From positions 23,128 through 87,127 of the forward strand of contig JBPOJD010000003.1 in assembly GCA_052033955.1 (NCBI GenBank): DNA of 64,000 nucleotides. The letters are read 5' to 3'. The stretch's first letter is position 1, and each line of letters begins with the position of its first letter. The notes under the pieces are model-generated. The model saw only the letters and a program-made list of their open reading frames with translations. It searched no databases and was not told the DNA's origin. A program made the position numbers and the translations under genes. Below, piece by piece: positions 5,889 to 61,620 of the stretch. The stretch is from Candidatus Hydrogenedentota bacterium (lineage in GTDB: Bacteria > Hydrogenedentota > Hydrogenedentia > Hydrogenedentales > SLHB01).

Positions 5889-5914
5889 CCGCCACGGCCT
5901 GAGGCCCGCTTGCG

Positions 5915-33637: not shown

Positions 33638-33641
33638 TGCC

Positions 33642-36620: not shown

Positions 36621-36858
36621 GCGTTGTCCTTTCGAATGGATGGGGCTCCGAACCGCCGGCGCCCATGCCGCGATGCGAGCAACGCATGTGCCAACGCGTC
36701 GCCGCCCCGCAAGACTGCCGCGGATATGCGGAAATCTGCGGGCGCGCCGGTGATCAACGGGAACACCAGCGCTGTGATGTGGCGATTGCATGCGCGATCT
36801 GGCGCGCAACCCTTGGCTGGATTCGGCATGTCCGCAGTGGGCCGCGGCATGGGTGAGG

Positions 36859-37752: not shown

Positions 37753-39155
37753 GCCAGTGCCTCCCCTTCTGAGACGCCACGTCCGAGGTGAACTGGCGTC
37801 TGCCGGGGCACGGGCGCCTGTTCTGGTTGCGCCAAGACCGCCGGAAGCGCGCAACAGAGCGCCCAGAAGCACCAGAAGGCGACGGAGGTGAAGCCGCGGC
37901 TGCTGGTGATCGCCGTCTCGACGAAGTTCGACAGCAGGCACTGCACCATCACAATGACCACGACCGCCTTCAGGTCGCCGGGCGGAAGGTGCAGAGCTCT
38001 TATCAAGGGCAGCACGAGGATGATCATCCAGACCAGTCCACCCACGAGCCCCATGCCGATCACGGCATTCAGGTAGCCATTGTGGAGCGATGTGCGCGCG
38101 CTGCCCCAGGTCGACTCCATCTGCTTGGTCGAAAAACGTGGGTCGGTCCATACCTCGCCGCCTACCTCGTAGCCGTAGCCGCGAAGCGGGCGCTGCCCGA
38201 TGAGGGCCAGGCTGGGCCCCCAGAACTGTTCGCGCCCGGTGAGATCGGTGATCGTGCGTGTGGCGGCCTGATCGCGCTCGAGACTGGGCACCACCGCCGC
38301 GGACAGAAGCACCAGCGGTACCCCGACGACAACGGCCGTCAGGCTGAAACGAAGGCCCTGTCCCAAGAGGACGTGCCAGAGCAGGACCGCGGCCACGGCA
38401 CACCCGATGGATGACCGGGAGCCTGACAGGAGGAGCAGCCCCCATGCGAGCCCGAACATGGCGCCGAAGAAGGTCTTGCCGAAACCGGCCGAGCGCCGGT
38501 ACCGCCACATGAGCAGCGATATGGCGATCATGCACAGTCCGCCAAGCATGTTGGGGTGGCCCGTGATGCCCTGATACCGGTTCGGAGACTGCCACCACCA
38601 CACCTGGGACGGCGCGAACACCAGTGCCGCCGCGTTGATCACCAGCCCGGCGCATGACAGCACGGTAAGCAGCGCTAAGATGCGCTCGACACCGGACCGC
38701 TCCTGGGCCATCGCATACAAGCCAAGGAGGAAGGCCAGGAAGACGATGGCCTCGGACGCCCGAATGAAAGTAAAAGCGGGATTGATGCTGTACCACGTGG
38801 TGACCAACGCCGCACCAAAGAATGCGCCGGCCATCGTGAAGACCGGCGGCACGGGGAGTTCCTGCCGCGAGCGGACGCGCAGGCAGGCGGCGGCTCCTGC
38901 GAGCCCGGCGACAAGAATGATCGCCATGCGGACGTAGGTGCTGATCTCAGTGGATTCGGCGAACTCGAGAAACTCGTTGAAGCGCAGTTCCTCATTTGAT
39001 GAGGTCAACCAGTGGGCCCACGGGGATATCCACACGAGCCCGGCCATGATCTCGAAGCGGCGCAGCGAGTGCGCGAAGACGACCGCGACAGTCAGCGCGC
39101 CGCACAGTGCCAAAAGGGCGCTCACCACGAGGCCATGTTGCACCAGGAACGTCAT
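37749..39155 (-). CDS. O-antigen ligase/polymerase-like membrane protein (Wzy_C domain)
   Basis: Multi-transmembrane protein whose periplasmic loop carries GSRSSIGCAVAAVLLWHVLL ... HNGYLNAVIGMGLVG, typical of O-antigen ligase/Wzy. ATG at 39155 (MTFLVQHGLVVSALLAL). Confidence 0.7.
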   Translation of the reverse strand: MTFLVQHGLVVSALLALCGALTVAVVFAHSLRRFEIMAGLVWISPWAHWLTSSNEELRFNEFLEFAESTEISTYVRMAIILVAGLAGAAACLRVRSRQELPVPPVFTMAGAFFGAALVTTWYSINPAFTFIRASEAIVFLAFLLGLYAMAQERSGVERILALLTVLSCAGLVINAAALVFAPSQVWWWQSPNRYQGITGHPNMLGGLCMIAISLLMWRYRRSAGFGKTFFGAMFGLAWGLLLLSGSRSSIGCAVAAVLLWHVLLGQGLRFSLTAVVVGVPLVLLSAAVVPSLERDQAATRTITDLTGREQFWGPSLALIGQRPLRGYGYEVGGEVWTDPRFSTKQMESTWGSARTSLHNGYLNAVIGMGLVGGLVWMIILVLPLIRALHLPPGDLKAVVVIVMVQCLLSNFVETAITSSRGFTSVAFWCFWALCCALPAVLAQPEQAPVPRQTPVHLGRGVSEGEALA

Positions 39156-39174
39156 GGCGTGTCCCCGTGTACTG

Positions 39175-40629
39175 TCAGCGATCGGCCCATGCCAACGCTC
39201 CCCGGAGCGCGGTGCGCTCCTGTGCGGTCCAAAAAGGTCCCAGCCAGACCACGGCCGTGCAGGCCGCGAAGAAGGCGCCGATGCCGCCGAGGAACAGGGG
39301 GACGGTGGCGTGGCGCAGCGCGAAGGCCGCCATGAGCAGGGCGCCAAACACGCAGCACAGCAGAAAGAGTCGTCCCCACTCGACATGCTCGACAAGGTTC
39401 AGCCGGCGCATGCCCAGCGCCAGCTCAACGGAGTCAGCGAATAAGGCCGCCGATGTCGAGGCGATGACCGCGCCGTGCCATCCGAAGCGGGGAATCAGCA
39501 CGAGGCTCAGGACCACACAGGCCGCACCGCACGAGGAGTTGAGCGCGGCGAGCACGCTGGTGCGACGCGCGGCGCCCAGCAGCGTCTCGCCGAAGTAATG
39601 AAGGCCCATGAGCGCCTGTCCCGGCAGGAGCCACAGCATCACGATGAAGGCATCGGAGTAGGTTGGGGGCGCGACGAGCGGCAGCAGCAGCCGCGTCCCG
39701 ACTATGATGGCGAAGGAGAAGGTCGTGGTGACCAGCACGAGATAGGTCAGCAGGCGTGCCACATTGCGTTCAATCCCCGGGTTGCCCAGATTACCGTACA
39801 CGTAGGGCTGGAACGCCAGCTGGAACGGCAGAAAGACGCCTATCGCGGTCAGGGTGGCGAACTTGTAGCCGAGCGAGAACACGGCGACCGTGGTCAGGCC
39901 TGCGGAATAGCTGAGGACGTACAGACTTACGCCGTAAATCGTCGATTGCCCCGCGGACGAAATAACGAGCGGGCCGCCAAAACGCAGGAAGACGGGCAGC
40001 AGCGTTCGGGACACGCGGACGCCACGCCGGGGAAAGATGTCCAGCGCGACGATGATGTAGACCATGCAGTACGTCGCGATGTACGCGTACAGCGCGCCGC
40101 GAACGCCGAGGCGGAGCACATACAGCGCGATGATGGTGTTCACGAGGAGGATCAGGCCGCTGCCCAGACCGACGCCGATGAAGCGGCGGGAGAGGTTATG
40201 GGCGCGGTAATACGACATGATCTGGAGGGTGAGCGTCTGGGCGAGCGCCGCGACACAGGTCAGTCCGATCAGGGCGAGCACCGTGTCGGTGTGCAGGATG
40301 ACCCGGAAGAGGTTGGGCAACAGCAGGACGGCGACGCCGGTCACGACGGCGCCGCCCATCAGCACAATGACCGTGCAGGTGCCCAGCAGGTGGCTGATGC
40401 GGCCGGCTTCCTCGCATTCCTTGGTGAATCGCAGCGCGGTCTCGCCCATTCCGACGTTCATCAGAAACAGCATGAAGTGGATGGTGATCTGGAGCGTCGC
40501 CCACATGCCGAAGTCGTCCATGGACAGGCAGTAGGTGTAGACCGGCGTCAACAGCAGCGAGGCGGTCCGCATTCCGATGTTGCCGAGCCCGTACAGCGCG
40601 GCATCTTTGAAGAAACCCGACAGTTTCAT
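39175..40629 (-). CDS. Oligosaccharide flippase (Wzx / polysaccharide biosynthesis protein)
   Basis: MKLSGFFKDAALYGLGNIGMRTASLLLTPVYTYCLSMDDFGMW is a typical PST-family start. About 12-14 transmembrane helices. Its ATG at 40629 overlaps the stop of the upstream oxidoreductase. Confidence 0.75.
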   Translation of the reverse strand: MKLSGFFKDAALYGLGNIGMRTASLLLTPVYTYCLSMDDFGMWATLQITIHFMLFLMNVGMGETALRFTKECEEAGRISHLLGTCTVIVLMGGAVVTGVAVLLLPNLFRVILHTDTVLALIGLTCVAALAQTLTLQIMSYYRAHNLSRRFIGVGLGSGLILLVNTIIALYVLRLGVRGALYAYIATYCMVYIIVALDIFPRRGVRVSRTLLPVFLRFGGPLVISSAGQSTIYGVSLYVLSYSAGLTTVAVFSLGYKFATLTAIGVFLPFQLAFQPYVYGNLGNPGIERNVARLLTYLVLVTTTFSFAIIVGTRLLLPLVAPPTYSDAFIVMLWLLPGQALMGLHYFGETLLGAARRTSVLAALNSSCGAACVVLSLVLIPRFGWHGAVIASTSAALFADSVELALGMRRLNLVEHVEWGRLFLLCCVFGALLMAAFALRHATVPLFLGGIGAFFAACTAVVWLGPFWTAQERTALRGALAWADR

Positions 40630-41807
40630 GCGATATGCCGTCCGGTGTCGCTCGCAACCGGCGCGGCGGCCGGCGCTCCCTTGGACTGAAGGGCCGCATG
40701 GGCGACGTGCGCGATGGAGGAACCATTTACCGGTTCGGGCCTCATGGGGACCGCTGCCGCCGGTTTCATCGCCCAGACGGCGCGGCGCCCATTGGTCGCC
40801 ACCTTGCCGCCGCCGTTCCGGAGGGAGGCGGTCGAGGCCTCGAGCACCCGCACGACGGCCAGCCCGTTGGCGCCGTCGCTCAGGGGGGTCTTGCCTTCGC
40901 GCAGGCACTCGACGAAGTGCTGGCACTCGATCTTGAGCGGTTCCTGCTCGCGGATGTAGGGACAATGCATGTCGCCGTAGTGATACGAGTACTGAAAGTC
41001 GGCGTAGGTATCGTAGTGCGGCGGCACCTCGACGTGTTTGTCGTAGATCTTGATCTTCTCGACGGGTGCGATGTCGTCGTAGACAAGCATCTTACGGGTG
41101 CCGACAAAGGTCATCTCGCGGGTCTTGTTCGGGTCGAGCCAACTGCTCTGGACCATGGCGAGGACGCCCGAGGGGAAGCTCAGCGTCATGTTGGTGACAT
41201 CCTCGATGCCGCGCGCGATACCGGCCTTGCCCTGGCAGGCGACGAACTCGGGGTCTTCGCCGACGACATGGATGATGATGGAGATGTCGTGGGGGGCAAG
41301 ATCCCAGGTGACGTTGATGTCCTTCTGGAAGAGCCCGAGGTTCAACCGGCGCGAGGTGACGTAGAGCAGCGTGCCCAGTTCGCCGGAGTCCACGATTTCC
41401 TTGATGGCGCGGACCGGACTCGAGTACAGGAAGGTGTGGCCGACCATCAGGGTCAGGCCCTTCTTCTGGGCCAGCCCGATCAGGGTGCGGCATTCGGCCG
41501 AGGACGCGGCCATCGGTTTCTCGATGAAGGTGTGTTTCCCGGCGCTCAGTGCCTTCTTTGCCAAGGCGAAGTGGGCCTGCACGGGGGTGACGATGGCCAC
41601 GGCATGGATGTCCGGGTTGCCCGTGACGTCATTGAAGTCCGAGGTGGTGGTGACCTGGGGCCAGAGGCCCTTCATGTGGGCAAGCCGGCTGGGGTTTGCG
41701 TCGCACAGCATCGTCACTTGGCAGTCCGGTGCGGAATTGAAGTTCCGCACCAGGTTTGGGCCCCAGTACCCGCACCCCACGACGGCGACATTGCATGTGG
41801 CGTTCAT
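40626..41807 (-). CDS. Gfo/Idh/MocA-family NAD-dependent oxidoreductase (WbpB-like UDP-sugar 3-dehydrogenase)
   Basis: MNATCNVAVVGCGYWGPNLVRNFNSAPDCQVTMLCDANPSRLAHMKG ... EKPMAASSAECRTLIGLAQKKGLTLMVGHTF is the Gfo/Idh/MocA N-terminal Rossmann fold plus its C-terminal domain. Start at ATG 41807. Confidence 0.8.
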   Translation of the reverse strand: MNATCNVAVVGCGYWGPNLVRNFNSAPDCQVTMLCDANPSRLAHMKGLWPQVTTTSDFNDVTGNPDIHAVAIVTPVQAHFALAKKALSAGKHTFIEKPMAASSAECRTLIGLAQKKGLTLMVGHTFLYSSPVRAIKEIVDSGELGTLLYVTSRRLNLGLFQKDINVTWDLAPHDISIIIHVVGEDPEFVACQGKAGIARGIEDVTNMTLSFPSGVLAMVQSSWLDPNKTREMTFVGTRKMLVYDDIAPVEKIKIYDKHVEVPPHYDTYADFQYSYHYGDMHCPYIREQEPLKIECQHFVECLREGKTPLSDGANGLAVVRVLEASTASLRNGGGKVATNGRRAVWAMKPAAAVPMRPEPVNGSSIAHVAHAALQSKGAPAAAPVASDTGRHIA

Positions 41808-41812
41808 TACAG

Positions 41813-42892
41813 TCACTCCTTTCCGAAGAGAAGATCGTTGAATTGGCTGCCGACCGTCGGCAGCGTCTTGAGCAGTATCCAAAGGTCCGACCACAGCGAA
41901 AACGTGCGGGCGTACCGGATATCCAGCCGGACCATTTCGTGAAAGGTGAGCCGGTTCTTGCCGCTGACCTGCCACAGGCCTGTCATGCCCGGGACGCAGT
42001 CAAAACGCGCGGCGTGCCACGCGGCGTAGGCCTCGACCTCGTAGGGGATGGCGGGCCGCGGGCCGATCAGGCTCATTTCCCCGCAGAGGACATTGAAGAG
42101 CTGCGGGAGTTCATCCAGACAGAGCGAACGCAGCAGGCGCGCGAAGGGGATAAGCTGCGGATCGTACTCGAGCTTGACCATCGGGCGTTGGACGTCGCCG
42201 CGGCACACGCCATTGCCCTGGATGAGTTCGGTGACGTGACGGCGGTGGATTGCCGTGTCGGCGTGCACCCGCATGGTGCGGAATTTCCACATGCGGAACG
42301 GGAATCCGCGGAACCCGACGCGCTCCTGCGAGAATAATACCGGCCCCGGCGACGCGATCTTGACGTAGAGAGCCAGTGCCGCAAAAAGGGGCGCCAGCAG
42401 AATCAGTCCGATCAGCGCGCCGGTGACGTCCATCGCCCGTTTCCAGCGCGGCAGTGGGCGCCCGAAGAGCGCTTCGGCCGGCATGCACGGCGGGGAGTTC
42501 ACTGCGGCGTCCGGCGCCGTCTCGCGGCCCGTTGTCGTGGGATACACGAACATCGAGCACAGGATCCGCGGGACGGGCGTTCCGGCAGGCAGCCGTGTGG
42601 CGGCCGCTTCCGCGAAGGCCGCCTCGATCGATGCCATCACGCTTTGCGCGCCCGCCTGCCGGGCATTGGGGAGCAGGAGGCCGATGGCGTGGTGGCGCGG
42701 GTCCTCCCAGCCGGCGATGTCGCTCTTGCGGTGGCGTGCGGCAACGGTCTCGGCGAGAAGGGTGAGCCACGTCCGTTTGCCGGGACGGGATCCCTCGATG
42801 CGGAACCGCAGGAACGCGAACGGCCGTTCCGATCGGTCGGCGTAGGCGCGATGCTGCACCAGTGCCCGGGCCAGGGCCTCGCTGGACAACAT
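41813..42892 (-). CDS. Polyprenyl-phosphate sugar transferase (bacterial sugar transferase, WbaP/EpsB-like) with an N-terminal degenerate GGDEF-like domain
   Basis: C-terminal LIGLILLAPLFAALALYVKIASPGPVLFSQERVGFRGFPFRMWKFRTM...DELPQLFNVLCGEMSLIGPRP is the Bac_transf domain. The N-terminal region ERPFAFLRFRIEG...KSDIAGWEDPRHHAIGLLLPNARQAGAQSVMASIEAAF resembles GGDEF, with GWEDP in place of GGDEF. Start at ATG 42892 (MLSSEALARAL...). Confidence 0.75.
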   Translation of the reverse strand: MLSSEALARALVQHRAYADRSERPFAFLRFRIEGSRPGKRTWLTLLAETVAARHRKSDIAGWEDPRHHAIGLLLPNARQAGAQSVMASIEAAFAEAAATRLPAGTPVPRILCSMFVYPTTTGRETAPDAAVNSPPCMPAEALFGRPLPRWKRAMDVTGALIGLILLAPLFAALALYVKIASPGPVLFSQERVGFRGFPFRMWKFRTMRVHADTAIHRRHVTELIQGNGVCRGDVQRPMVKLEYDPQLIPFARLLRSLCLDELPQLFNVLCGEMSLIGPRPAIPYEVEAYAAWHAARFDCVPGMTGLWQVSGKNRLTFHEMVRLDIRYARTFSLWSDLWILLKTLPTVGSQFNDLLFGKE

Positions 42893-42958
42893 CCCGGCGC
42901 TGGGGGGCGGGTCAGACGCGCGCTGTGTTCCCCCTGTGCGTGCGTGCGTACCGTTGCC

Positions 42959-43648
42959 GTGTCCTTGCATGGCGTGTTCCTGGCGCTACAGGCGCTGGTA
43001 GAGGAACTCGGGGATGTACTGCCGTTGATTGCTCAGGATGGCCCCGAGAATCCGGCCGTTGTTCGCGACGATCTGTTCCGCCTGGTGTTTGACGGCCTGC
43101 CACCGGGCCCTCTCGGCTTCGACGACCAGCACGACGCCGTCCGCCGCGCCGCACAGAAGCTGAGTGCGCGCGGGCAGCCCGCCGAGGGCCGCATCCACCA
43201 GCACCCAGTCGAACGTTTCGCGCCACTGGGCGCAGAGCCGGTCCACATCGGCGGGGTCGCCCGCCGCGGCGGTCGCCGCATCCACGGCATCCGGGCGTGA
43301 GCCGTTGTTTCCGTTAACAGGCGCTTCCGGCCATGCCGGGTCGTTCTTGTGAAGCCCGTTGCCCATGACGCGCCCACCCACGACGAGCACTCGCTTCTTG
43401 AGGCAGCACTCCGCCGTCCTGGCGACCAAGGTCAGCACAGGCGTCCCGTTCGGCTGCGCGGGCACGGAGACGAAGGCCAGCACGGCGCCGCGTGAACGGT
43501 CGAGCTGTGCATCGATGCGCTTGCATGCCCCAAGGAGGCTCTCGTCAATCTCCGCCAAGGGAAGCGGGGGGACGGCGGCAACCGGGGCGGTCTCGACGGG
43601 TTGTGCGCGGTCTTTACTGGCCTGTTGCAGGGCTTCGTAGATCTTCGT
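42959..43648 (-). CDS. BY-kinase-like (ParA/MinD-fold) protein with a degenerate Walker A motif
   Basis: MTKIYEALQQASKDR ... VLAFVSVPAQPNGTPVLTLVARTAE ... DWVLVDAALGGLPARTQLLCGAADGVVLVVEAERARWQAVKHQAEQIVANNGRILGAILSNQ has the architecture of an EPS tyrosine autokinase C-terminal domain. The Walker A GK(S/T) is replaced by PNGT. Confidence 0.5.
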
Positions 43649-45126
43649 CATGGCTGGCGGGACTCCCATTCCGGCACGCCGGGTTCTTCCGCTGCGAGCA
43701 AACTGTCCGCTGCGTTGTCCGGCATGGACGCCGGGAAGACGATCTCCTGTCCGACGTGGATCACATCCACGTTCTGTATTCCGGGGTTGTGACGCTGCAC
43801 GAATTCGATCATCGTGCCGTTGCAGTACCCATAGATCTCCGTGATCAGGCGTGTGAGGCAGTCTCCTTGGCCCGCGACGCGGCGCAGCTCCGCCGGAGCC
43901 TGAGCCGGAGCCGGAGCGGGCGCGGAGGCGAGGGTAGCCTGTTGGACCGGGGCCTCGACCGGCGGCAGGTCGACGCGCTCCACCGCCGGGGCAATCGCTG
44001 GCGGCCCGGGCGAAACCGGTGCGGCCGCGGGCTCGGGCGCCGTCGTAGCGGCTTGGGTGTCGCCAACATGGGGAACAGAAAGGGGAATCGGGCTGGGGAC
44101 CGCGGCCAGGTGAGTGCTGTCCGGAGCGATCTCGGCGTCCGCCGCATAGGTGCGGGGCAGCACATTTCCGTCATTCGACGACTCGGCGGTCGTGACGAGG
44201 GGGCTTCCAGCCGCATCCAGGCCGGACCGGATCCCCAGGCCCGATAGCAGACCAACAACCAGCACCACGAGGGCGAGGGCCGCGACACTCCGCGTGCGCC
44301 GCGCCGCCGGAACCGGAGCGGCCCCGGAGAGTTCGCGGGCGACCCGTGCGGCGATGCGCGCCGGCACCGGGCGGCGCTGGCTTCCGTACCCGGCGATGAG
44401 GGCGTTGTCGCAGAGGATGTTCAGGGTGCGCGGGATGCCCTTGGCGCGAAGGGTGATCGCGGACAGGGCCCGCAGCGAGAAGACGGGTCCCAGCGCGCCC
44501 GCCTTATCGAGGCGAAAGCGGATGTACTCGGTGCTCTCCCTCGGGGACAGCGGCTGGATCGCCGCCCGCACGGCGATGCGCTGTTTGAGCTGGCGGAGGG
44601 CGTAGAGGTCCAGCTTGTGGTCCAGCTCCGGCTGTCCCACAAGCACGATTTGTAGGAGTTTCTCCTGTTCGGTTTCGAGGTTTGACAGGAGCCGGAGCTT
44701 TTCCAGCGTCTCGACGGGCATGTTCTGTGCCTCGTCGATAAGCAGGACCACATTGCGTCCCTGGGTGAACTCTGCGATGAGCTGCATCTGAAGCCGTTCG
44801 AGCGGACTCGCCAGGCCGTCATCACCGGCAGGGGCCCCCAGTTCGCGAAGCAGCAGGGCCAGGAGGGCGTCGTAGGTGATATCCGGGTCGAAGAGGTAGA
44901 TCGGATGGACGCCGCTGCCTTGGGCCATGCTCAGATAGGCCCGCAGTACCGTCGTCTTGCCCGTGCCGACCTCGCCGGTCACGACGACGAATCCCTTGCG
45001 GGCGTTCACGCCGTATACGACCGAGGCGAAGGCCTCGCGGTGGCTCGGGCTCAGGTAGAGGAACTTCGGATCCGGTGTGATCCGGAACGCCTCCTCGGAG
45101 AGTTGATAGAAGTCCAGGTACATCAC
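43648..45126 (-). CDS. ExeA/GspA-like AAA ATPase (EPS/exosortase-locus secretion ATPase family)
   Basis: MMYLDFYQLSEEAFRITPDPKFLYLSPSHREAFASVVYGVNARKGFVVVTGEVGTGKTTVLRAYL (Walker A) ... LLIDEAQNMPVETLEKLRLLSN (Walker B). Ala/Pro-rich linker, then a C-terminal probable peptidoglycan-binding module. Confidence 0.75.
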   Translation of the reverse strand: MMYLDFYQLSEEAFRITPDPKFLYLSPSHREAFASVVYGVNARKGFVVVTGEVGTGKTTVLRAYLSMAQGSGVHPIYLFDPDITYDALLALLLRELGAPAGDDGLASPLERLQMQLIAEFTQGRNVVLLIDEAQNMPVETLEKLRLLSNLETEQEKLLQIVLVGQPELDHKLDLYALRQLKQRIAVRAAIQPLSPRESTEYIRFRLDKAGALGPVFSLRALSAITLRAKGIPRTLNILCDNALIAGYGSQRRPVPARIAARVARELSGAAPVPAARRTRSVAALALVVLVVGLLSGLGIRSGLDAAGSPLVTTAESSNDGNVLPRTYAADAEIAPDSTHLAAVPSPIPLSVPHVGDTQAATTAPEPAAAPVSPGPPAIAPAVERVDLPPVEAPVQQATLASAPAPAPAQAPAELRRVAGQGDCLTRLITEIYGYCNGTMIEFVQRHNPGIQNVDVIHVGQEIVFPASMPDNAADSLLAAEEPGVPEWESRQP

Positions 45127-46664
45127 GTGTAACTCTTCTCCCGCAGGACGGCGAGCACCGGAATCCCGAGCGATTTCTCGAGTTGCTCGCGCGACCGGAC
45201 GGAGCTGTCGAAGTGGTCACGCACAAAGGCCAGGGTAACCGCCAGAAAGAGGGCGGCGATCATGCCGAGGACGATATCGACCGGCTTGTTGGGGCGAACC
45301 GGTGCGGGAAACACCGTGGCCGCCTGCACTACGCTGATGTTCGAGACGCGATCCATATCCATCGCGGTCGAGATGCGCGCCCGCTGAAGGCTGTCGTGAT
45401 AGTCGCGGTAGGCCTTTTCGGCCAGTTGCGCTTCGCGGGCCAGGCCGTCCAGCTCGACTTCGCGCGCCACCAGGGTGGCCAGCATATCCTCGTGCCGCGC
45501 AAGCTGGGCCAGCAACACCTCGTGCCGGGCCTTCTCCGCCTGGGCACGGGTCACCTCGCTGTCGAGTTCGAACTGGAGAGCCTCGCGCCGTTCGTCCAGC
45601 CCGGTCGTGACTTCGGTCAACGTGGCGTTCTCGGCCGCGAGCGAGGCCTCGAGCTGTGCTATCTGTTCACGGACCTGTACCAAGGGGCGATGGCTGTCGG
45701 GGTAGCGGGCCGAAAGGTCGGTTTCCTGGAGGCGCAGATCAGACAGGCGCTCCTTGAGCGAGTCGGCCGCGACGTTGGTCTTGCCGGTTGTGCGCACGAT
45801 TTCGCGGGTCGTGGGGCGGCCCGCCAACGTGTTGCGGAGGGCCGCGGCGCGGGCCTCGTGGGCGGAAGCGGCGGCCGCGGCCAGGTCCGCTTCGGACCGC
45901 GCCGAACTGATGCGCTCGATGAGCGTCGATTTCTCCTGGGCCAGGTCCGCGATGCGGTGCTGAGTGCGGAAGGCCTCGAGCGCGCGTTGCCGGTCGGTGA
46001 GTTCGGCGCCCAGAGCGCCTACCTGCGCCTCGAAGAAGTCCGGCGTGGCCTGGGTCGCATAGACCTCGATATGACGTTTCAGATAGCCCGTCACGATGTA
46101 GTCGAGCGCCTGCCGGGCGATCTCGGGATCGTGCGCCTCATAGGTGGCGCTGATAATGTTGTCGCGCTTGCCGACCTCGGCGGAGAAGCTCCGCATGACC
46201 CGCCGCACGGCCTTGTTCCGCGTCGTGACCGGCGGCAGGATGTTCAGCGCGGCGAGGGTGCCGGCGACCGCACTCTTTGCGTTTCGGACCGCAGCGCCCA
46301 CAGCGCCGGGTTCTTCGGACGACGGGCGACGCCCCAGGATCGTCTCGGGGCCAAGGGAATCGACGAGTCCTTCGGCGAGGTCACGGCTCTGGAGAATGGC
46401 GAGCTCGGAATGAACCTCATTGTCGCGGTTCACGTAGGGGTTGACCGTGGGTCCTGACACGGACGGGTCCATCGCCAGGTTCTCGCGCCCGAGCCGGATG
46501 AGCATATGGGCCTCGGCCTGGTATACCGGCGCGCGCAGACAGGTGACGACGACGACCAGCGCGGTGACGGTCGCGAAGACCACCAGGATCATCCGGCGCC
46601 GGCGAAACAGCACGGCGAGGATGTCCCGGGGAGAAGTGGTTACCGTCCCATTATTTCCAGCCAT
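45123..46664 (-). CDS. Polysaccharide chain-length determinant protein (Wzc N-terminal-type / GumC-EpsF-like, no kinase domain)
   Basis: N-terminal transmembrane helix (ILVVFATVTALVVVVTCL), Wzz domain, long coiled-coil, C-terminal transmembrane helix (IVLGMIAALFLAVTLAFV). The ATG overlaps the stop of the upstream ATPase gene. Confidence 0.75.
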   Translation of the reverse strand: MAGNNGTVTTSPRDILAVLFRRRRMILVVFATVTALVVVVTCLRAPVYQAEAHMLIRLGRENLAMDPSVSGPTVNPYVNRDNEVHSELAILQSRDLAEGLVDSLGPETILGRRPSSEEPGAVGAAVRNAKSAVAGTLAALNILPPVTTRNKAVRRVMRSFSAEVGKRDNIISATYEAHDPEIARQALDYIVTGYLKRHIEVYATQATPDFFEAQVGALGAELTDRQRALEAFRTQHRIADLAQEKSTLIERISSARSEADLAAAAASAHEARAAALRNTLAGRPTTREIVRTTGKTNVAADSLKERLSDLRLQETDLSARYPDSHRPLVQVREQIAQLEASLAAENATLTEVTTGLDERREALQFELDSEVTRAQAEKARHEVLLAQLARHEDMLATLVAREVELDGLAREAQLAEKAYRDYHDSLQRARISTAMDMDRVSNISVVQAATVFPAPVRPNKPVDIVLGMIAALFLAVTLAFVRDHFDSSVRSREQLEKSLGIPVLAVLREKSYT

Positions 46665-46677: not shown

Positions 46678-47487
46678 TTAAGGCACGGTTATGGGCCACT
46701 GTGTGTCAATGGTTACGTTGCGGGACTCGGACCGCGACTCGTTGGCGACCTCGCTGAAGGTGTAGTGAAGATTGCGCGGGACGATGCGGTTGATGTACTG
46801 CTCGACCCACTGGTTGACCCGGTCGATGCCGGTGCGCGGCACGTACACAATGTCATAGGGTTCGAGAAAGAATGCCTCGCTCTGCGGCGATCGCATTGGC
46901 TTGGCGAGATCGATGGCCATCGCGTATTGCTGGTCGCCCTCGCGCCGCAGGACCACGACGTTGGACATCTGGGCGCTTTCCTTGAGATGACCGCCAGCCT
47001 GCATGATCGCCTGGAGCGGGGTCATGCGGCCTGTCAGCGCGATGACGCCCGGCGCCTGCACCTCGCCGCCGACGTAGACGCGGTGGCTCTCCAGGCCACT
47101 CACGACCACGTTGATCTCCGGATCCTTGAGCTTGTCCCGGTAGGCTTCCAGAAGCTGGTCGCGGAACTGCGCGGGCGTGCGTCCCTCGGCATGTTGCTCG
47201 CCCACCAGCGGCAGCGACAGCTTGCCGTCCGGGCGGATGGCCTGATTCTGATTGAGTTCTGGCCAGTGGATGAACTGGATCTCGAGCACGTCGCCGGCGC
47301 GCAGCAGCAGCGCGTCCTGGGTCGCCGGACCGTCCGTGTGGGCACTCTCGATGGTGCGCGGCAACGACGTGCTGGCGCATCCACCGGCGAGTGCCGCCAC
47401 GGCCATCAGAAGACCCAGGACCGCAGTGCACACCGGGGCGTACCGCCGCCCTGAGCAGCCCAAGGATGAAGCAGTAATTGGATTCAT
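46678..47487 (-). CDS. Polysaccharide export outer-membrane lipoprotein (Wza-like; Poly_export + SLBB)
   Basis: Lipobox LAGGC after the signal peptide. DVLEIQFIHWPELNQNQAIRPDGKLSLPLVGEQHAEGRTPAQFRDQLLEAYRDKLKDPEINVVVSG is the Poly_export domain. The ATG at 47487 has a GGAGGAA Shine-Dalgarno; the GTG at 47505 is the alternative. Confidence 0.8.
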   Translation of the reverse strand: MNPITASSLGCSGRRYAPVCTAVLGLLMAVAALAGGCASTSLPRTIESAHTDGPATQDALLLRAGDVLEIQFIHWPELNQNQAIRPDGKLSLPLVGEQHAEGRTPAQFRDQLLEAYRDKLKDPEINVVVSGLESHRVYVGGEVQAPGVIALTGRMTPLQAIMQAGGHLKESAQMSNVVVLRREGDQQYAMAIDLAKPMRSPQSEAFFLEPYDIVYVPRTGIDRVNQWVEQYINRIVPRNLHYTFSEVANESRSESRNVTIDTQWPITVP

Positions 47488-47586
47488 GTCCAGCGATTCC
47501 TCCACGCTTGCCGTCTGCCGGTTGCGTTGCCGGGTGGGGGGGCTTCCGATTCACCGTCCCGCCCGCGTCGACGCGCGCCGGGCTGT

Positions 47587-47608
47587 GCAAGAGCAAGCGG
47601 TGTGCCGG
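47587..47608 (-). promoter_or_regulatory. Candidate sigma-54 (-24/-12) promoter for the wza-led EPS operon
   Basis: The minus-strand sequence cCGGCACaccgcTTGCtcttgca has GG at -24 and GC at -12 with the canonical 5-nt spacing between GGCAC and TTGC. It lies about 95-115 nt upstream of the wza start codon and immediately downstream of a sigma-54-dependent activator gene. Confidence 0.45.
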
Positions 47609-47908
47609 TTTCCGAAGATAGGGGAACGCCCGGGGGGGCGCGTTCCGGGTATGCGGGGACAGCAGGATGATCGCTCCGGGCGTTGCGCACCGATTCAATG
47701 AAGCCCGTATGGTTGGGCGGACGCGGGGGCCGGTTCAGGAGCAGCGCTTCGGAAGACCCAGCGGTTTCATGCGCAATGTGTCGGGCGGCAGGTGTCGAAA
47801 ACGATTAAGGGAATGCCCGATGGCGTGTGAAGCGAACAGAGCGGGGGCGGGGGAACAGGGCCGGGCCAGCCATCGCGCGAGCGCGGCTGCGGCGGGGCGA
47901 GATGCGCG

Positions 47909-49300
47909 CTACGCGCAACGGAAGGGCACGGTCTCGTCAAGGTGATGTTTGGCGATGCGGCGCCGGAGGGCGCTGTAGCTGATGCCGAGGTTCGAGGCGG
48001 CCTGGCGCTGGTTCCACCGGCACTCGACGAGGGCGGCGAGAATGGTGCTGCGTTCGATGGCCTCGAGCTTGTCGTCGTGGGGGCCGGTCTCCGGAGCGGC
48101 CACGGCGGGAGCAACGGTTTGCAGGACCGGCTCGATGTCGCCCGTGAGGGCGTAGCGTGCCACGAGTGCTTCCAGCTCGCGGACATTCCCCGGCCATTGG
48201 TAGCGGATGAAGTGCGGGACGACCTCGGGCGGCAGCCCGGTGTGCGTGAACCCGCGCTTGGCCGCGCAGGTCTGTAGAAAATGCTCACACAGCAGCGGGA
48301 TGTCGTCGACGCGGTCGCGCAGCGCGGGCAGGGTGATGCTGAACTGGCGCAAGCGGTAGAACAGGTCCGGCCGGAAGGCGCCGGTCTCGATCATGTGCTC
48401 GAGGGGCGAGCTGGTCGCGGCGATGATGCGGCCGTCAAACAGCGTGGTTCCCTTTCCTCCGACCCGCACGAACTGCTTGTGCTCGATCACCTCAAGGAGC
48501 TTCGACTGCATCGAGGGGGACATGAGCCCGATCTCGTCGAGAAAGATGGTGCCGCCCTCGGCCAGCTCGAAGCGGCCCGGCTTCTGCGACACCGCGCCGG
48601 TGAAGGCGCCCTTCTCGTAGCCGAACAACTCGGACTCGAGCAAGGTGTCGGGGATGGTGGGGCAGTTGATCTTCACGAAGTTGCCCGTTGCGGCCCGGGG
48701 AGACAGCGCGTGGATCAGGCGGGCGACCACGTCCTTGCCGGTGCCGCTCTCGCCCCGGATCAGGACCGTCATGTCCGACGGGGCGACCTGGGCGACGAGG
48801 TCCAGCACCCGCTTGACGCACGGTGTGGCCCCGACGAAGGCAGGCAACACCTGATCCCAGTCAGTCGAGGGGGCCTGTACGGGCACGGTTCTCCTCTGGT
48901 GTCCGTTCAGATGCACAGCGGCCGTCTGACACTCGATGGCGCGGGTCGTGGACGCCGGGAGCCGGCCGAGGTCGTCCGGGCGAATGAGAAATTCGTAGAC
49001 GGCAGCGCCCAGGCGCTCGCGGAGAGTGGTGATGCCGGGTTCGGGTGCAGTGACAATCAGTTTCGCGCGGCACGGCGGACAGGTCAGTCGTTCAACCAGT
49101 TGGATGCTGGACTCGTCGATGTGCTCAATGTCGATCACCGCCACGTCAAAGCCGTCGCGGGATACGAGGGCCATAACGTCATACTCGGACTCGCCAGGGG
49201 TGATTGCGCATCCGGTCTCGTGCAGGCACCACACGAGGGCCTTGCGCCACCCCTCGGTTTCAGACCAGACCAGCACGTTCCCCTTCCGCCTGGTGTTCAT
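47909..49300 (-). CDS. Sigma-54-dependent response regulator (NtrC family; resembles PEP-CTERM-locus regulator PrsR)
   Basis: N-terminal receiver-like domain (NVLVWSETEGWRKAL...DVAVIDIEH). Central AAA+ sigma-54 activator domain (GESGTGKDVVARLIH...ESELFGYEKGAFTGA with the GAFTGA motif...GGTIFLDEIG). C-terminal Fis-type HTH (AASNLGISYSALRRRIAKH). ATG at 49300. Confidence 0.85.
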   Translation of the reverse strand: MNTRRKGNVLVWSETEGWRKALVWCLHETGCAITPGESEYDVMALVSRDGFDVAVIDIEHIDESSIQLVERLTCPPCRAKLIVTAPEPGITTLRERLGAAVYEFLIRPDDLGRLPASTTRAIECQTAAVHLNGHQRRTVPVQAPSTDWDQVLPAFVGATPCVKRVLDLVAQVAPSDMTVLIRGESGTGKDVVARLIHALSPRAATGNFVKINCPTIPDTLLESELFGYEKGAFTGAVSQKPGRFELAEGGTIFLDEIGLMSPSMQSKLLEVIEHKQFVRVGGKGTTLFDGRIIAATSSPLEHMIETGAFRPDLFYRLRQFSITLPALRDRVDDIPLLCEHFLQTCAAKRGFTHTGLPPEVVPHFIRYQWPGNVRELEALVARYALTGDIEPVLQTVAPAVAAPETGPHDDKLEAIERSTILAALVECRWNQRQAASNLGISYSALRRRIAKHHLDETVPFRCA

Positions 49301-49582
49301 CTCGACCTCCCCTTCTTTCTCACATGCAGGGTCTTTTTCACTTTTCGCTCCTATATCAAAATACCCGCAACCATCGCCATCGCCTATCGGGACGCGGCGC
49401 ATTATCGGGTCAGGGGAACCCGGATAACGCGAAAGCGGCCGATCAGGTACACTGTGGTGGGGCTCAGACCGCTCGAGCCGTCCAACCACCTTCACGCGCC
49501 GCTCTGAGCCCCCCGAGATGCGGCGCGTTTCCGGCTACAGGCCGGGTGGGAGACCTCCACCGTGTTTCCCGGAGTGAGGCCA

Positions 49583-51250
49583 ATGCGTCGTAGCGCGTCG
49601 CGCGCCGTCGGCCCGGTATCCCTGTTTCCCCTCGCGGCGGCGCTGGCGGCGGTGTTGGCGGGTCTCGGGATTGCCTTGGCCGCAGACGCCGCCACGTACT
49701 ACGTCGACGGGGCCACGGGGCGCAACACCAACAACGGCCTGAGCGCCGGTACCGCCTGGCGGACGATCCAGAAGGCGGCCACCACGGTGACCAGCGGGAG
49801 CACGGTGCTGGTGGCGCCGGGCCAGTATCCCGAGCGCGTGACCATGTCCCGGTCGGGCGCGGCCGGTGCGCCGATCGTCTTTCAGGCCATGGGACCCGGG
49901 ACACAGTGCTACGGCTTCACAGTCGAGGGGTCGGTCATCGTGCGCTACGTCATCGTGGACGGATTCGAGATCACGATGCCACGAAGCAGCACGTGGGATG
50001 TATGGGGCGCCGGAAGCGGGGTGGCGCTCGTCCATACCCAGTACTGCGAGGTGCGAAACAACTGGATCCACCACACCTTGCGCGAAGGCGTCCTGGTGCA
50101 CACCCGCGGGGCGGCGGACGGATACAACAGCAGCTTCAATGTGGTCCGCGGGAACCGCATCGAGTACGCGGGGACCTATGCGGGCATCACGGTCAACGGC
50201 GCGTCGCAGCTCATCGAGAACAACGACATCAGTCACACCATCCAGCACCCGCTCTATCCCATCCTCAGCAGCGCGGGCGGCCCGGATGCCGACGGCATCA
50301 AGTTTTCGGGGCGGGACCACGTGTTTCGCGGCAACCGGATTCACAGCCTGAGCGCCAACGACCCGGGGAATGTGGATGCGCACATCGACGCCTTCCAGAC
50401 CCTGGGCCCGGCGTACAACATCCTCATCGAGGCCAACGTCATTGACCTGCCGCCGAGCGATTCCCATGGTCAGGCGGCCATGATCAGCCAGATGGTGCAG
50501 CCTACGCGCGACCTGACCTTCCGTTACAACGTGATCTGCGCCTACACGGGCTTGAACATCTGGGGCATCCACGACCAGACGCGCGAGGTGGTTCCGATCA
50601 GCGGGATACGCATCTTCAACAATACCTTCTACGGCATGCAGGCCTACGAGATCGAGCTGCACGACTGTCCGTCGGCCGTGGTGAAGAACAACATGATGTC
50701 GGCGACCGGACGCTACATCTGGTTCAACTACCCGACGGATATTGGCTACAACGGCGTCCGCCGCCGCAGCATGGCACGTCCCAACGACGTCGTTGTCACC
50801 GATGCGCGGTTTGTGGATGCATCCGCACGCAACTTCCGGCTGCTCGCCGACAGCCCGCTGATCGACGCGGGCGTCAACGTGGGATTGGCCGAGGACTTCG
50901 ACGGCACGCCGGTTCCGCAGGGAAATGGGGTCGACATTGGAGCTTTCGAGTTTGACCTGCGGAGCACCAATGGAGGTGGTGACGACGGCGGGGGCGAGGC
51001 AGATCCCGACGACGACGGGGACGGCCTGTCCAACGCGCGGGAACTCGAGCTCGGCACCGACCCGAACAACCCCGATACCGATGGTGACGGGATCCCGGAC
51101 GGCGTCGAGGTGGCGCTCGGGCTCGATCCGCTCGACCCGGGCGACCCCGCGCTTCTGATTGTGCGCGGATGGCCGTTCTTCTTGATAGCGGGTCTGTTGG
51201 CGCTGGTGTCCCGGCGCGCGTGGCGGCCCGTCGCGCGGCGGCAACCCTGA
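49583..51250 (+). CDS. Secreted right-handed beta-helix protein (paralog of the modules in 24260..28693) with TSP3-like motifs and a C-terminal transmembrane helix plus Arg-rich tail
   Basis: ATG at 49583 after a GGAGTGAGG Shine-Dalgarno. Signal peptide [36 protein letters not shown]. The beta-helix module ([56 protein letters not shown]...) is about 60 percent identical to the modules in the giant protein. The C-terminus reads ...[82 protein letters not shown]. Confidence 0.8.
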
Positions 51251-58956: not shown

Positions 58957-61620
58957 TCAGTTGGAGCGCAGCTTTCGCGATCGCCTGCTGAACACGGCGA
59001 GGGCCGCGAGCACGAGCGCCACCACGCTCAGGTCGGTCCACGGCGCGCCGTGGCTGCTCCCGGCATGGCAGCCGACCGCAGTGTTGCCATCGCCGCCGCC
59101 GCGGATGAAGGGCGTCACGTTGACCGGTCCGATGATTTTCTTGTTGATCATTCCTCTGGTGTAGACGCCCCAGTCATTGTTCTGGGCCAGCATCTCAATG
59201 CCGGTATTGTTGATGATGAAATTGCCGCCAATATTGCGGAACACATTGTTGCCGCTCTCACCGACCCTCGTGCTTCCCAGGAAAGGCACGGCTGCGGCGG
59301 TACTTTTTTCGAGTGGCGGCTGCACAAAGATCGCATCGCTCCGAATAGCCTCAAAGGTGTTGTCGCGCAGTTCGACTTCCGTGTCAATGGCATGTACGCC
59401 AAAGTGAAGCCGCCGGATCTGGCAGTCTTCAATGAGCGTGTCGAAGGACCCCTCGCCGTCAATCAGCAGACCTATCGAAAACAGATTGTCGTTGCCCACA
59501 AAGTCGACACCGGCGACGTGCATGTTTACATTGTGGATGCGCAAGAGCGTCGTAACGAAGCCGTGGACGCCGGGAAGGCGCACGGTGCAGTCATAGAGAC
59601 CGCCGTTGTCGGCGCCGTACAAGACGAAGCTCTCCGCCCCCATCTGCCCGACGCCACTGATGACCGTGGCGCCCTGTCCGGCGCCCGCCAGCGTCACATC
59701 AGCGCCGAAGACGACGCTTTCCGGGTAGATGCCGGCGCCCACGCTGACGTTCACGGGGCGGGCGCCCAGTCCGTAGATGCCCCCGGCGGTATAGATGCGG
59801 GCGGCCGTCATGGCGCGCGTGATGGTTCTCCATGGACTGTCGGCGGCCCCGAGGTTCTGGTAATCGTCGCCTTGCAGTTTCACAAACCGTTCCTGCGGCG
59901 GATCCGCCGGGTCGGTGGGATCGATATCATAAATCACCTCGTATCCATTGGGCAGTCCGTCGCCATCGGCGTCATCCAAGGCATCATGCATGGTCGGATC
60001 CAGGCCGTAGGCCACCTCGACGCCATCGCGCATGCCGTCGCGGTCCGTGTCCCAACTCAGGGGATCGGTGCCGTACACCATGATCTCGTCGTGATTCGTC
60101 AGTCCGTCGCCATCGTCATCGCGATCGGCATCCTCCGCGTCATAGGGGTTCAGCCCGGCGGCCACCTCCAACAGGTCCGGAATGCCGTCGCCGTCCGTGT
60201 CGTCCTCACCGGTAATGCCGTCGCCGTTTTCGCCCTGCAAGAACTCATAGGCACCCATGTCCGGTGCGGCGCCGCTGGGCTGCCAGATCCCGTTCAACGA
60301 CGGACCCGGTACCCACAGCGCCTCGGCGGCGTCGATGCTCGGCGAGTCTGCGGTCAGGTTGTAGTCGCCGTTGGCGGGGTCCGCGAAGAGCGGGTCGGCG
60401 GTGATGTTGCCCAAGCCGGGCAGGGACGACAGGAGCGCGGAATAGGTGACGGTCCGGGAGGTGGCCGTGATCGGTTCGCGCACAATGCTGTTCTGAACAG
60501 TGACGTTTTTCGCGAGAATGCCGCCGTTCACATTATCCGCCACCGTGCAATGCAGCAACTGCACGGCGCCCGAGTCGGTGGCATGGACGGTCCGTCCTGT
60601 GTTGCCGGTTACCTGACAGTTGGCCATGATCAACGAACCTACATGCAATCCGGTGAGCGTGCCGCTTGCCGTGGACGTGTTGCCAGAAATGATCGTTCGC
60701 TCGATGACGACGGCACTGTTGTACGCCACGGCCCGCGTCGTGTTGTCGAGAAAGACACAGTCCGTGATGCGCAGCGGCGCGAAATTTGTCCTGACCGTCC
60801 CGTTGGTGGACGACGTGCGCTCGAACCGGCTGCCCTGTATCTGGCCACGGCTATGCAATAAATAGACGGCTGTTCCGGTCAGGTCCTCGAACACGCAGTC
60901 GTCGACCAAGAGGTACGCCACCGCGGATGCCTCTATGCCGGCCACTGCGTCTGCGTTAGAACCGTTCCCCCGGAAGGAACATCCACGGAACGTGGCAACC
61001 CGGCTTCTGTCCAGTTGCACCGGCGCACGCCCCGTGAAGTGGTGGAACTCGCAGTTGATGAAGACAGGGGCACAGTTGGCCGAGGCGTCTACAGCCTCGC
61101 TCTCCGGACCACTGCCGCGGAAGCGGCAGTTGCGCACATGCGGGGAGGCTTCACGGATGTAAAGTGCAACATTCCAGCTGTTGCTCGTCGGCCCCGCCCC
61201 CTGGATCGTGAACCCGTCCAGTACGTTGCTTGCGGCCCTGATCACAACCGAGGCAGGGTAGCCCTTGCGGGCCGTGGAACCGTCGATGATGGTCACGTTG
61301 GCGTCCCAGTCGCGTTCTTCGCGCAGCGTCTCGGTCCCCGAGAATCCGCCGTAGAGGTCGACGTTGCTGCGCATGATGAGCGCCCCATCCGGGTCGGTAC
61401 GCAGTTCGTCATAGGTGCCCGCGGCCACCCAGACCTCACTGAACGTGGCCGGGTCGGCCGCGTCGATGGCATCCTGGACCGCGCGGAACGCCGTGGCCCA
61501 CGAGGCCCCGTCCTGCACGCCGGACGTGTTGGCGCGGTCAACGTAGATGACGGCGGCCGGAGCGGACAGGGCGGTCAGTATGGCTGCGCAGACAACACCT
61601 GATAGTACGAGTACACGCAT
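58957..61620 (-). CDS. Secreted right-handed parallel beta-helix repeat protein (887 aa) with TSP3-like Ca-binding motifs and a C-terminal transmembrane helix plus Arg/Lys-rich tail
   Basis: ATG at 61620 after a GGAAAGGA Shine-Dalgarno. Signal peptide MRVLVLSGVVCAAILTALSAPAA. Many NxT/NxS-rich beta-helix rungs. Asp-rich DxDxDGxxD motifs occur mid-protein. The C-terminus reads ...GGGDGNTAVGCHAGSSHGAPWTDLSVVALVLAALAVFSRRSRKLRSN. Confidence 0.8.
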   Translation of the reverse strand: MRVLVLSGVVCAAILTALSAPAAVIYVDRANTSGVQDGASWATAFRAVQDAIDAADPATFSEVWVAAGTYDELRTDPDGALIMRSNVDLYGGFSGTETLREERDWDANVTIIDGSTARKGYPASVVIRAASNVLDGFTIQGAGPTSNSWNVALYIREASPHVRNCRFRGSGPESEAVDASANCAPVFINCEFHHFTGRAPVQLDRSRVATFRGCSFRGNGSNADAVAGIEASAVAYLLVDDCVFEDLTGTAVYLLHSRGQIQGSRFERTSSTNGTVRTNFAPLRITDCVFLDNTTRAVAYNSAVVIERTIISGNTSTASGTLTGLHVGSLIMANCQVTGNTGRTVHATDSGAVQLLHCTVADNVNGGILAKNVTVQNSIVREPITATSRTVTYSALLSSLPGLGNITADPLFADPANGDYNLTADSPSIDAAEALWVPGPSLNGIWQPSGAAPDMGAYEFLQGENGDGITGEDDTDGDGIPDLLEVAAGLNPYDAEDADRDDDGDGLTNHDEIMVYGTDPLSWDTDRDGMRDGVEVAYGLDPTMHDALDDADGDGLPNGYEVIYDIDPTDPADPPQERFVKLQGDDYQNLGAADSPWRTITRAMTAARIYTAGGIYGLGARPVNVSVGAGIYPESVVFGADVTLAGAGQGATVISGVGQMGAESFVLYGADNGGLYDCTVRLPGVHGFVTTLLRIHNVNMHVAGVDFVGNDNLFSIGLLIDGEGSFDTLIEDCQIRRLHFGVHAIDTEVELRDNTFEAIRSDAIFVQPPLEKSTAAAVPFLGSTRVGESGNNVFRNIGGNFIINNTGIEMLAQNNDWGVYTRGMINKKIIGPVNVTPFIRGGGDGNTAVGCHAGSSHGAPWTDLSVVALVLAALAVFSRRSRKLRSN

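Follow-up and report, generated by a model that had tools for sequence, protein, structure and literature searches.

A sigma-54-dependent activator with a receiver-like domain and two candidate -24/-12 promoters in an exopolysaccharide gene cluster of a Candidatus Hydrogenedentota bacterium

This report concerns a gene cluster for a Wzx/Wzy-type exopolysaccharide, and the sigma-54-dependent transcriptional activator encoded beside its export genes, in DNA from a Candidatus Hydrogenedentota bacterium (assembly GCA_052033955.1, contig JBPOJD010000003.1, positions 23,128 to 87,127 of the forward strand). The whole stretch of 64,000 nucleotides (nt), with a G+C content of 65%, is referred to below as the window, and coordinates are counted from its first letter. 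About 45 window open reading frames (ORFs) were scanned with Pfam and NCBIfam. The activator gene (47909..49300, minus strand), recognised by its Pfam domains, encodes 463 amino acids (aa) and starts with an ATG at 49300 behind the sequence GGGGAGG. A 421-nt gap separates its stop codon from the ATG, at 47487 and with GGAGGA in front, of a Poly_export/SLBB gene (46678..47487, minus strand; Pfam Poly_export, SLBB_2 and SLBB), which encodes a short Wza-like OPX lipoprotein of 269 aa.

The Wza-like gene opens the first of two presumed operons, which we name after the candidate promoters P1 and P2 described below. The remainder of the presumed P1 operon (36859..46664, minus strand; Pfam and NCBIfam assignments) would be co-transcribed with it and encodes, in order, a Wzz/GNVR co-polymerase, an AAA_22 ATPase, a 227-aa protein, a Bac_transf priming sugar transferase, a GFO oxidoreductase, a flippase, a Wzy_C polymerase and a GT2 glycosyltransferase. 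The best NCBIfam matches of the export lipoprotein are TIGR03027 and Myxococcus EpsY, both under cutoff, and the export and priming genes have sub-threshold matches to the Myxococcus EpsY and EpsZ models. A 238-nt gap then separates the GT2 gene from a hexapeptide N-acetyltransferase gene (ATG at 36620). This gene opens the presumed P2 operon (29480..36620, minus strand), where it is accompanied by genes for a DegT aminotransferase, a nucleotide-sugar dehydrogenase, a GT4 glycosyltransferase and a small GGDEF-like protein, with a polysaccharide deacetylase and a FemAB-like protein closing the operon.

An initial annotation of this DNA had placed a near-consensus -24/-12 element within 47587..47608, between the activator gene and wza, and such an element is indeed present at 47607..47592. 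This element, P1 (CGGCACACCGCTTGCT, 47592..47607, minus strand), has its GG at 47606-47605 and its GC at 47594-47593, in canonical spacing. It lies between genes, on the coding strand, and 104 nt separate it from the ATG of the Wza-like gene; transcription would start near 47581, which implies about 94 nt of leader. The same annotation had overlooked a stronger and better conserved element, P2 (TGGCACATGCGTTGCT, 36678..36693, minus strand; read as 36693..36678), and was incomplete because of it. P2 is located in the 238-nt gap between the GT2 and N-acetyltransferase genes, 57 nt before the ATG at 36620, with transcription predicted to start near 36667, and each of the two elements stands 57-104 nt before a start codon with a Shine-Dalgarno sequence.

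As that annotation had proposed, we scored the region with a sigma-54 position weight matrix, here an approximation of the published consensus with our own weights and not a curated model. Among 128,000 window positions P2 ranked first (score 18.2) and P1 second (15.3), the next score being 12.6. Under an independent-base background, sites scoring at least 15.3 are expected 0.32 times per window and 0.001 times in the gap between the regulator gene and wza on the coding strand. Of the bare pattern GGCAC-N5-TTGC the window has two copies, with 1.0 expected, and this count alone is therefore not significant; both fall in intergenic gaps of one polysaccharide cluster, on the coding strand. If P1 were a chance match, which the lack of over-representation of the bare pattern would allow, P2 alone would be real and the export operon would be transcribed by read-through or from an unrecognised promoter of the sigma-70 type. 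The expectation of 0.001 sites for this gap and orientation argues against such a reading. A simple scan of 47300..49700 recovered neither a sigma-70-like site, which also speaks against it, nor a terminator, and the lack of a terminator after the regulator gene is what read-through would require.

An RNA element in the gap or leader was considered as well and rejected, since both the Rfam and the folding tests were empty: no Rfam family was found in the window, and the fold of the 101-nt P1 leader was no better than that of shuffled sequences (z = +1.1).

The nearest homologues of the activator are metagenomic and 47-57% identical to it; the top match in a named genome (45% identity) is on a Candidatus Hydrogenedentes chromosome, and homologues of the acetyltransferase are likewise named Hydrogenedentes. 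We compared the window with related metagenomic loci (L001-L008 and L018-L021). Three of the group L018-L021 share contigs with L001, L003 and L005, and the fourth is on a sister-sample contig nearly identical to that of L006. Every relative with DNA (L001, L002, L003/4, L005, L006, L007 and L008) has the regulator gene followed by the gap and then by Poly_export, Wzz/GNVR and AAA_22, and the later half of the cluster, GFO through GT4, is collinear in L018-L021. Gene order within the P1 operon is likewise kept in L001-L007 and L018-L021, and within the P2 operon in L018, L019 and L021.

At the P2 junction three of four relatives keep a sigma-54 site, and its score is 17.1-18.3: TGGCATATGCATTGCT in L018 (17.1), TGGCACATGGGTTGCT in L019 (18.1) and TGGCACGCCCATTGCT in L021 (18.3). 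In the fourth, L020, its place (approximately 4900..4940) is taken by a sigma-70-like promoter, TTGATA-N17-TAAGAT. The L020 junction resembles a promoter-type swap, and this replacement indicates that promoter type is exchangeable in the cluster, which would favour P1 being a chance match. In the gap between the regulator gene and wza, the seven relatives are divided: the site is strong in two, weak in two and absent in three. The strong sites (L005, 17.1; L006, 15.0) both stand ahead of a small extra gene inserted before wza. The weaker matches in L001 (CGGTACGCGCCTTGCG, score 10.0, 73 nt from wza) and L002 (8.8-10.3) retain the GG-N10-GC spacing. The initial annotation had made its promoter depend on conservation of the GG and GC dinucleotides in orthologous gaps, and this holds strongly in L005 and L006, weakly in L001 and L002, and not in L003, L007 and L008.

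Several points count against sigma-54 control of the export operon, namely that no credible sigma-54 site occurs in the gap of L003, L007 or L008 (the last of these gaps being just about 100 nt long), that P1 has C and not T at -26, and that the scores come from the approximate matrix described above. Against these stand the strong sites in the gaps of L005 and L006, the correctly spaced ones in L001 and L002, and hexamers at an enhancer-like distance from P1 that are described below. We therefore consider it unlikely that P1 is a chance match. The conserved sites at the P2 junction, together with the patchy sites in the P1 gap, mark the cluster clearly as a target of sigma-54. Its conserved promoter is P2, which is very probably functional; P1 looks real in this genome and evolutionarily labile, and its function as a promoter is likely, at a somewhat lower level of confidence than for P2. 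As an observation on the same gaps, those of L002 (1816..2300) and L003 (7440..8040) are enlarged to approximately 800 nt by long imperfect inverted repeats, which look like inserted elements resembling miniature inverted-repeat transposable elements; one of them is annotated as a small ORF.

The protein encoded upstream of P1 is an NtrC-family bacterial enhancer-binding protein, as it combines a sigma-54-interacting AAA+ domain, a GAFTGA loop and a Fis-type helix-turn-helix (HTH) with -24/-12 promoters nearby. Sigma54_activat (PF00158) was matched over residues 156-322 with 211 bits against a cutoff of 20.2, and AAA_lid_14 is also present. Walker A (GESGTGK) and GAFTGA are intact in the activator and its 11 nearest homologues by regular-expression search, and alignment to NtrC1 places the Walker B DE in FLDEIG. 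The GAFTGA loop, the sigma-54 contact motif, was read from the sequence at residues 231-236 (48593..48610, minus strand) and is kept by all 12 closest homologues, and the Fis-type HTH_8 (PF02954; Pfam E = 4e-10) occupies residues 412-451 (47948..48067, minus strand), with a recognition helix, LGISYSALRRR, that is almost invariant in the clade. The top full-length PDB match is NtrC1 of Aquifex (4l4u, 229 bits over residues 8-452). No rpoN-like gene was found among the window ORFs scanned.

The N-terminal domain of the activator (residues 8-130; 48911..49279, minus strand) is receiver-like according to an AlphaFold2 model, the NtrC1 alignment and a MAFFT alignment. The model, based on 40 homologues, has a mean predicted local distance difference test (pLDDT) score of 89.5, and of above 90 in the receiver domain. 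It predicts a (beta-alpha)5 fold in CheY-like order, with strands at residues 8-13, 32-36, 53-57, 80-86 and 103-107 and five helices, followed by a disordered linker at residues 130-145. When isolated, the N-terminal 135 residues matched the receiver of Aquifex NtrC1 over its full length (residues 8-124, E = 0.0047). Pfam Response_reg (PF00072) gave no match to the whole protein at E <= 0.001, and to the domain alone it gave 15.5 bits against a gathering threshold of 30.2.

The residues of phosphotransfer are largely replaced in this fold. After beta-1, where a canonical receiver carries the acidic Asp-Asp pocket for Mg2+ binding, the activator has Ser13-Glu14-Thr15 (in WSETEGW), which align with E-D-D of NtrC1 (chain 1zy2). 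The corresponding residues of Escherichia coli NtrC are D-D-D, and the tool-derived NtrC1 alignment agrees with the E. coli NtrC and CheY rows of the MAFFT alignment. The acceptor Asp at the end of beta-3 is retained as Asp57. After beta-4 the canonical Thr/Ser is replaced by Ala85, with Thr84 adjacent, and after beta-5 the canonical Lys is replaced by Arg107, which precedes the invariant Pro108. The initial annotation had suspected an atypical receiver from the Glu/Thr in WSETEGW alone; the alignment confirms this suspicion, and Ala85, Arg107 and the low Response_reg score extend it. Among the twelve closest homologues of the activator (P0001-P0011 and P0015), the Lys position is Arg, Leu or Trp in all, and P0008 and P0011 lack the acceptor Asp while keeping the remainder of the protein and the gene neighborhood. 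A domain that keeps the receiver fold and has lost the phosphotransfer chemistry is by definition a pseudo-receiver, and the substitution pattern fits such a domain, with relaxed selection on the chemistry and a fold that is kept.

Some of these observations point the other way. Asp57 is conserved in at least 90% of the sequences in the 40-homologue alignment, and Glu14 and Arg107 are conservative replacements, so that phosphorylation by an unlinked kinase is conceivable. The sigma-54 switch could then be as described here with an ordinary response regulator, in which Asp57, at the end of beta-3, is phosphorylated by a kinase encoded elsewhere and the substitutions tune the reaction; Glu14 would keep one acidic side chain, and Arg107 the positive charge. 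It is common for an orphan response regulator to have its kinase encoded at another locus. Within the window the activator is an orphan, as the initial annotation had claimed, since Pfam and NCBIfam scans of the approximately 45 ORFs across 64 kb detected no histidine kinase; none was found in the flanks of eight related loci either. We find this alternative doubtful. It has to accommodate Thr15 in the second pocket position, Ala85 at the switch position, the loss of Lys throughout the clade, the two homologues without an acceptor Asp, and the lack of a kinase adjoining the gene in any of the eight loci. The receiver is intact in structure and degenerate in chemistry, and most likely would not serve a partner kinase as a normal Mg2+-dependent phospho-acceptor.

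Among enhancer-binding proteins, Caulobacter FlbD and Pseudomonas FleQ have non-canonical receiver-like domains that lack residues required for phosphorylation, and their activity is set by FliX (FlbD), by FleN (FleQ) or by cyclic di-GMP (c-di-GMP). The activator differs from them in that the acceptor Asp is retained, and the NCBIfam FlbD model matches its AAA+ part only; in an informal comparison, c-di-GMP motifs of the FleQ type did not look conserved in it. NtrC1 of Aquifex aeolicus (1ny5, 1zy2, 4l4u) provides both the best full-length match and the best receiver match; in NtrC1 a long helical linker keeps the AAA+ domain as an inactive dimer. The activator differs in its degenerate phosphorylation residues and in the linker at residues 130-145, predicted to be disordered; a coiled-coil linker of the NtrC1/DctD type was considered and is not seen in the AlphaFold2 model.

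A shared binding site for the activator is expected in the cluster, because the recognition helix is almost invariant in the clade. The initial annotation had pointed to short GTGTCG repeats in the gap as enhancer sites. These are two CGACAC hexamers on the minus strand (GTGTCG on the plus strand), at 47778..47783 and 47792..47797, which lie 14 nt apart and 176 and 190 nt upstream of P1. By our own estimate, a region of 420 nt would by chance contain approximately two 6-mers that recur within 20 nt, so the repeat is not significant alone. The hexamer does recur in three related loci (L001, L018 and L005), 110-155 nt ahead of sigma-54 sites. With CGACAC given beforehand, three occurrences in the -220..-40 segments of seven other sites compare with about 0.48 expected (P approximately 0.013, by our own arithmetic).

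In the relatives CGACAC forms the 3' end of a longer element. Alignment of six gaps from four relatives, anchored on CG[A/C/T]CAC, required no insertions or deletions and yielded a module of approximately 40 nt, AAC-NN-TTGC ... CAACAGTTG-N8-CGACAC. In the gaps that have a sigma-54 site, this module precedes the -24 element by 99-155 nt. On the one contig shared by L003 and L019, a P1-type and a P2-type gap have in common a 24-nt block in which 22 of 24 positions are identical, against a maximum of 19 in shuffled sequences. The pattern CAA-N3-TTG, which was picked after inspection of the data, occurs 19 times in the 169 kb of the window and loci, with 7 occurrences in 5.7 kb of regulatory gaps against 0.42 expected; all four occurrences of the composite with the N8 spacing are in regulatory gaps. 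A CAA-N3-TTG palindrome, TTGACAAACATTGACC (29398..29406), one of five in the window, was also observed in the gap upstream of a gene for a 1514-aa Ig-like/beta-helix protein, with no sigma-54 site near it.

Within the window the module is better matched at P2 than at P1. A putative enhancer-like module, AAGGGTTGCGCG...AATCGCCACATC (36775..36814, minus strand), lies upstream of P2, its CGCCAC hexamer 91 nt upstream of the -24 element. Its spacing, TTGCGCG-N17-AATCG.CACATC, is the same as that in L001 (TTGCGCG-N17-AATCGACACATC). We trained a module matrix on the six non-window copies only and then scanned the window; among 128,000 positions the top score of 5.7, low relative to the leave-one-out scores of the training copies, was tied between 36814..36775, upstream of P2, and 60661 on the plus strand. 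The GTTGCGC copy upstream of P2 belongs to the left element of the module found in the relatives. As a half-site in its own right GTTGCGC was rejected, as it is not over-represented window-wide (26 observed, 21 expected). A direct comparison of the sequences upstream of P1 and P2 was likewise discarded, the best ungapped matches being no higher than shuffled controls.

Two results speak against an enhancer of this kind: the 40-nt module is not recognisable upstream of P1, where the CGACAC hexamers stand alone, and a k-mer search of five upstream regions gave nothing beyond shuffled controls. What survives of the proposal on the GTGTCG repeats is thus the recurrence of the hexamer upstream of sigma-54 sites in three loci, while the repeat itself is at chance level and the rest of the module is missing at P1. 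The hexamers and the module upstream of P2 are candidate enhancer sequences for the activator. A palindrome, TTCATTGAA (47694..47702), was also noted 95 nt upstream of P1; the 11-mer CTTCATTGAAT that contains it is common to the orthologous gap of L001 (at -81), with marginal significance.

Taken together, we consider it probable, though less so than the function of either promoter, that a Wzx/Wzy-type exopolysaccharide cluster is controlled from this locus and is transcribed by sigma-54 RNA polymerase. We infer that the 463-aa activator binds upstream of two or more -24/-12 promoters of the cluster. P1 would drive the genes for export, polymerisation and priming, and P2 those for sugar modification and glycosyl transfer, with the activator opening closed sigma-54 complexes through ATP hydrolysis and its GAFTGA loop. 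The input is more likely to be independent of phosphorylation, and may be a protein partner, a ligand such as c-di-GMP, or the amount of the regulator.

One gene of the cluster bears on the nature of this input. The P2 operon contains a small gene (31995..32390, minus strand) for a degenerate GGDEF-like protein of approximately 131 aa, identified by tblastn (E = 1e-28), with sub-threshold matches to GGDEF and GGDEF_2. Its family comprises proteins of approximately 131-148 aa with GETD in place of GGDEF. In L005 (7177..7596), L006 (approximately 4893..5321) and L008 (approximately 13139..13366) the homologous gene is the first behind a strong sigma-54 site and adjoins the regulator or export genes; in the window, L018 and L019 its position is behind the GT4 gene. 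The GGDEF-like protein is a conserved member of the regulon. That it links the switch to c-di-GMP, or acts on the regulator directly, is speculation. It is conceivable, and we consider it rather improbable, that the activator and P0001-P0011 and P0015, which are apparently from Hydrogenedentota, form a clade of pseudo-receivers read out without phosphorylation, whose input is tied to the GGDEF-like protein, and that a feedback loop linked to c-di-GMP or to a partner protein sets polysaccharide production via a conserved bipartite enhancer of roughly 40 nt. We also considered whether the P1 gap conceals a small gene, as the gaps of L005 and L006 contain one, and rejected this: tblastn located the homologue at 32360..32013 and none in the gap.

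The initial annotation had interpreted the locus as PrsR-type control of an exosortase-associated exopolysaccharide locus. In the system described by Haft et al. in 2006, PrsR is encoded in tandem with PrsK (in tandem or nearby in 12 of 13 genomes), and the operons that it is proposed to target consist of a single PEP-CTERM gene and are proteobacterial (PMC1569441). The PEP-CTERM target genes carry motif-1 and a sigma-54 site and occur with exosortase (EpsH/XrtA) (PMC1569441). The resemblance is real, in that both systems have a receiver-AAA+-Fis activator near polysaccharide genes and an upstream motif followed by a distant -24/-12 promoter. The PrsR model TIGR02915 aligns with residues 10-454 of the activator, over its full length, at 277.7 bits, and the best NCBIfam matches of the export, chain-length and ATPase genes are to models associated with XrtA/PEP-CTERM.

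However, all of these matches are below cutoff (277.7 against 502.6 bits for TIGR02915, and 90 against 180, 133 against 279 and 242 against 324.5 for the associated models), and NifA and NtrC models outscore TIGR02915. No PrsK, PrsT (TPR), exosortase or PEP-CTERM domain was found in the 64 kb, nor any PEP-CTERM-like C-terminus among the window proteins by regular-expression search. The promoters here precede biosynthesis and export operons, whereas the described targets of PrsR are genes for PEP-CTERM proteins (PMC1569441); there is neither a tandem kinase nor a TPR partner, and the relatives are Hydrogenedentes-like and not Proteobacteria. We therefore reject the PrsR/exosortase interpretation on family cutoffs, absent partners and absent targets, and regard it as extremely improbable.

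Two other systems are functionally closer analogues. EpsI/Nla24 of Myxococcus xanthus is an NtrC-like activator encoded in the Wzx/Wzy eps locus, is required for expression of the locus and has been identified by experiment as a c-di-GMP receptor (PMC4877007). Like the activator described here, it is an NtrC-family protein with receiver, AAA+ and HTH domains inside a Wzx/Wzy exopolysaccharide locus; it differs in that c-di-GMP binding is an experimental result for EpsI/Nla24, and in the organism, here Hydrogenedentes-like. SypG of Vibrio fischeri switches on the four sigma-54 operons of the syp locus, all of which have an activator site upstream, and its canonical receiver is phosphorylated at D53 via the RscS/SypF phosphorelay (PMC10162802). 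The arrangement in the window would be similar, with a locus-encoded enhancer-binding protein, several sigma-54 promoters (at least two, P1 and P2) and a shared upstream module. In contrast to SypG, the receiver here is without the acidic pocket, the Thr/Ser and the Lys, no kinase is encoded nearby, and the upstream motifs are unrelated in sequence.

A genome-wide survey has tied sigma-54 to the cell exterior (PMC3162934), and sigma-54 control of surface polysaccharide by a locus-encoded activator is already well documented for SypG, EpsI/Nla24 and PrsR. The present case therefore mainly extends this pattern to an uncultured Hydrogenedentes-like lineage. It adds a proposed map of a two-promoter regulon and, for a clade whose recognition helix is invariant, a candidate enhancer module. 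In addition, the natural series of receivers that have lost the Lys and the acidic pocket, with the acceptor Asp also missing from two members, could show drift from phosphorylation control to other inputs.

The window contains a weak third sigma-54-like site, CGGCAGAAATATTGCT (24151..24166, minus strand; score 12.2), in the gap upstream of a gene for a 1400-aa DUF2334/Ig surface protein. This site is a mere lead, because approximately four sites of equal strength are expected by chance in the window. An orthologue of the 1400-aa protein adjoins the regulator in L003/L004.

With respect to the product of the cluster, a set resembling WbpA/B/E/D is encoded at 33642..36620 and 40626..41975 (minus strand), comprising the nucleotide-sugar dehydrogenase, the GFO 3-dehydrogenase, the DegT aminotransferase and the hexapeptide N-acetyltransferase. 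Homologues of the N-acetyltransferase carry the JGI name UDP-2-acetamido-3-amino-2,3-dideoxy-glucuronate N-acetyltransferase. On the basis of this set and the homologue name, the polymer probably contains a 2,3-diacetamido uronic acid. A second polysaccharide-type cluster (4467..16801) encodes a UDP-glucose dehydrogenase, a Wzz-like protein, a heparinase II/III-like protein, glycosyltransferases, a flippase and a Wzy_C protein; no sigma-54-like site scoring at least 12.6 occurs in it.

Further genes of the window were noted. Beta-helix/DUF1565/TSP3 'choice-of-anchor Q' proteins are encoded at 49562..51250 (plus strand) and 58957..61827 (minus strand), and their C-termini, with a hydrophobic helix and an Arg-rich tail, resemble a sorting signal without a PEP motif. 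The first of these genes is divergent from the activator gene and is found as the same neighbor in L001. A gene for a multihaem cytochrome c with Cytochrome_C554/MtrC-like domains (62780..63466, plus strand) adjoins an aldo-keto reductase gene at the window's right end.

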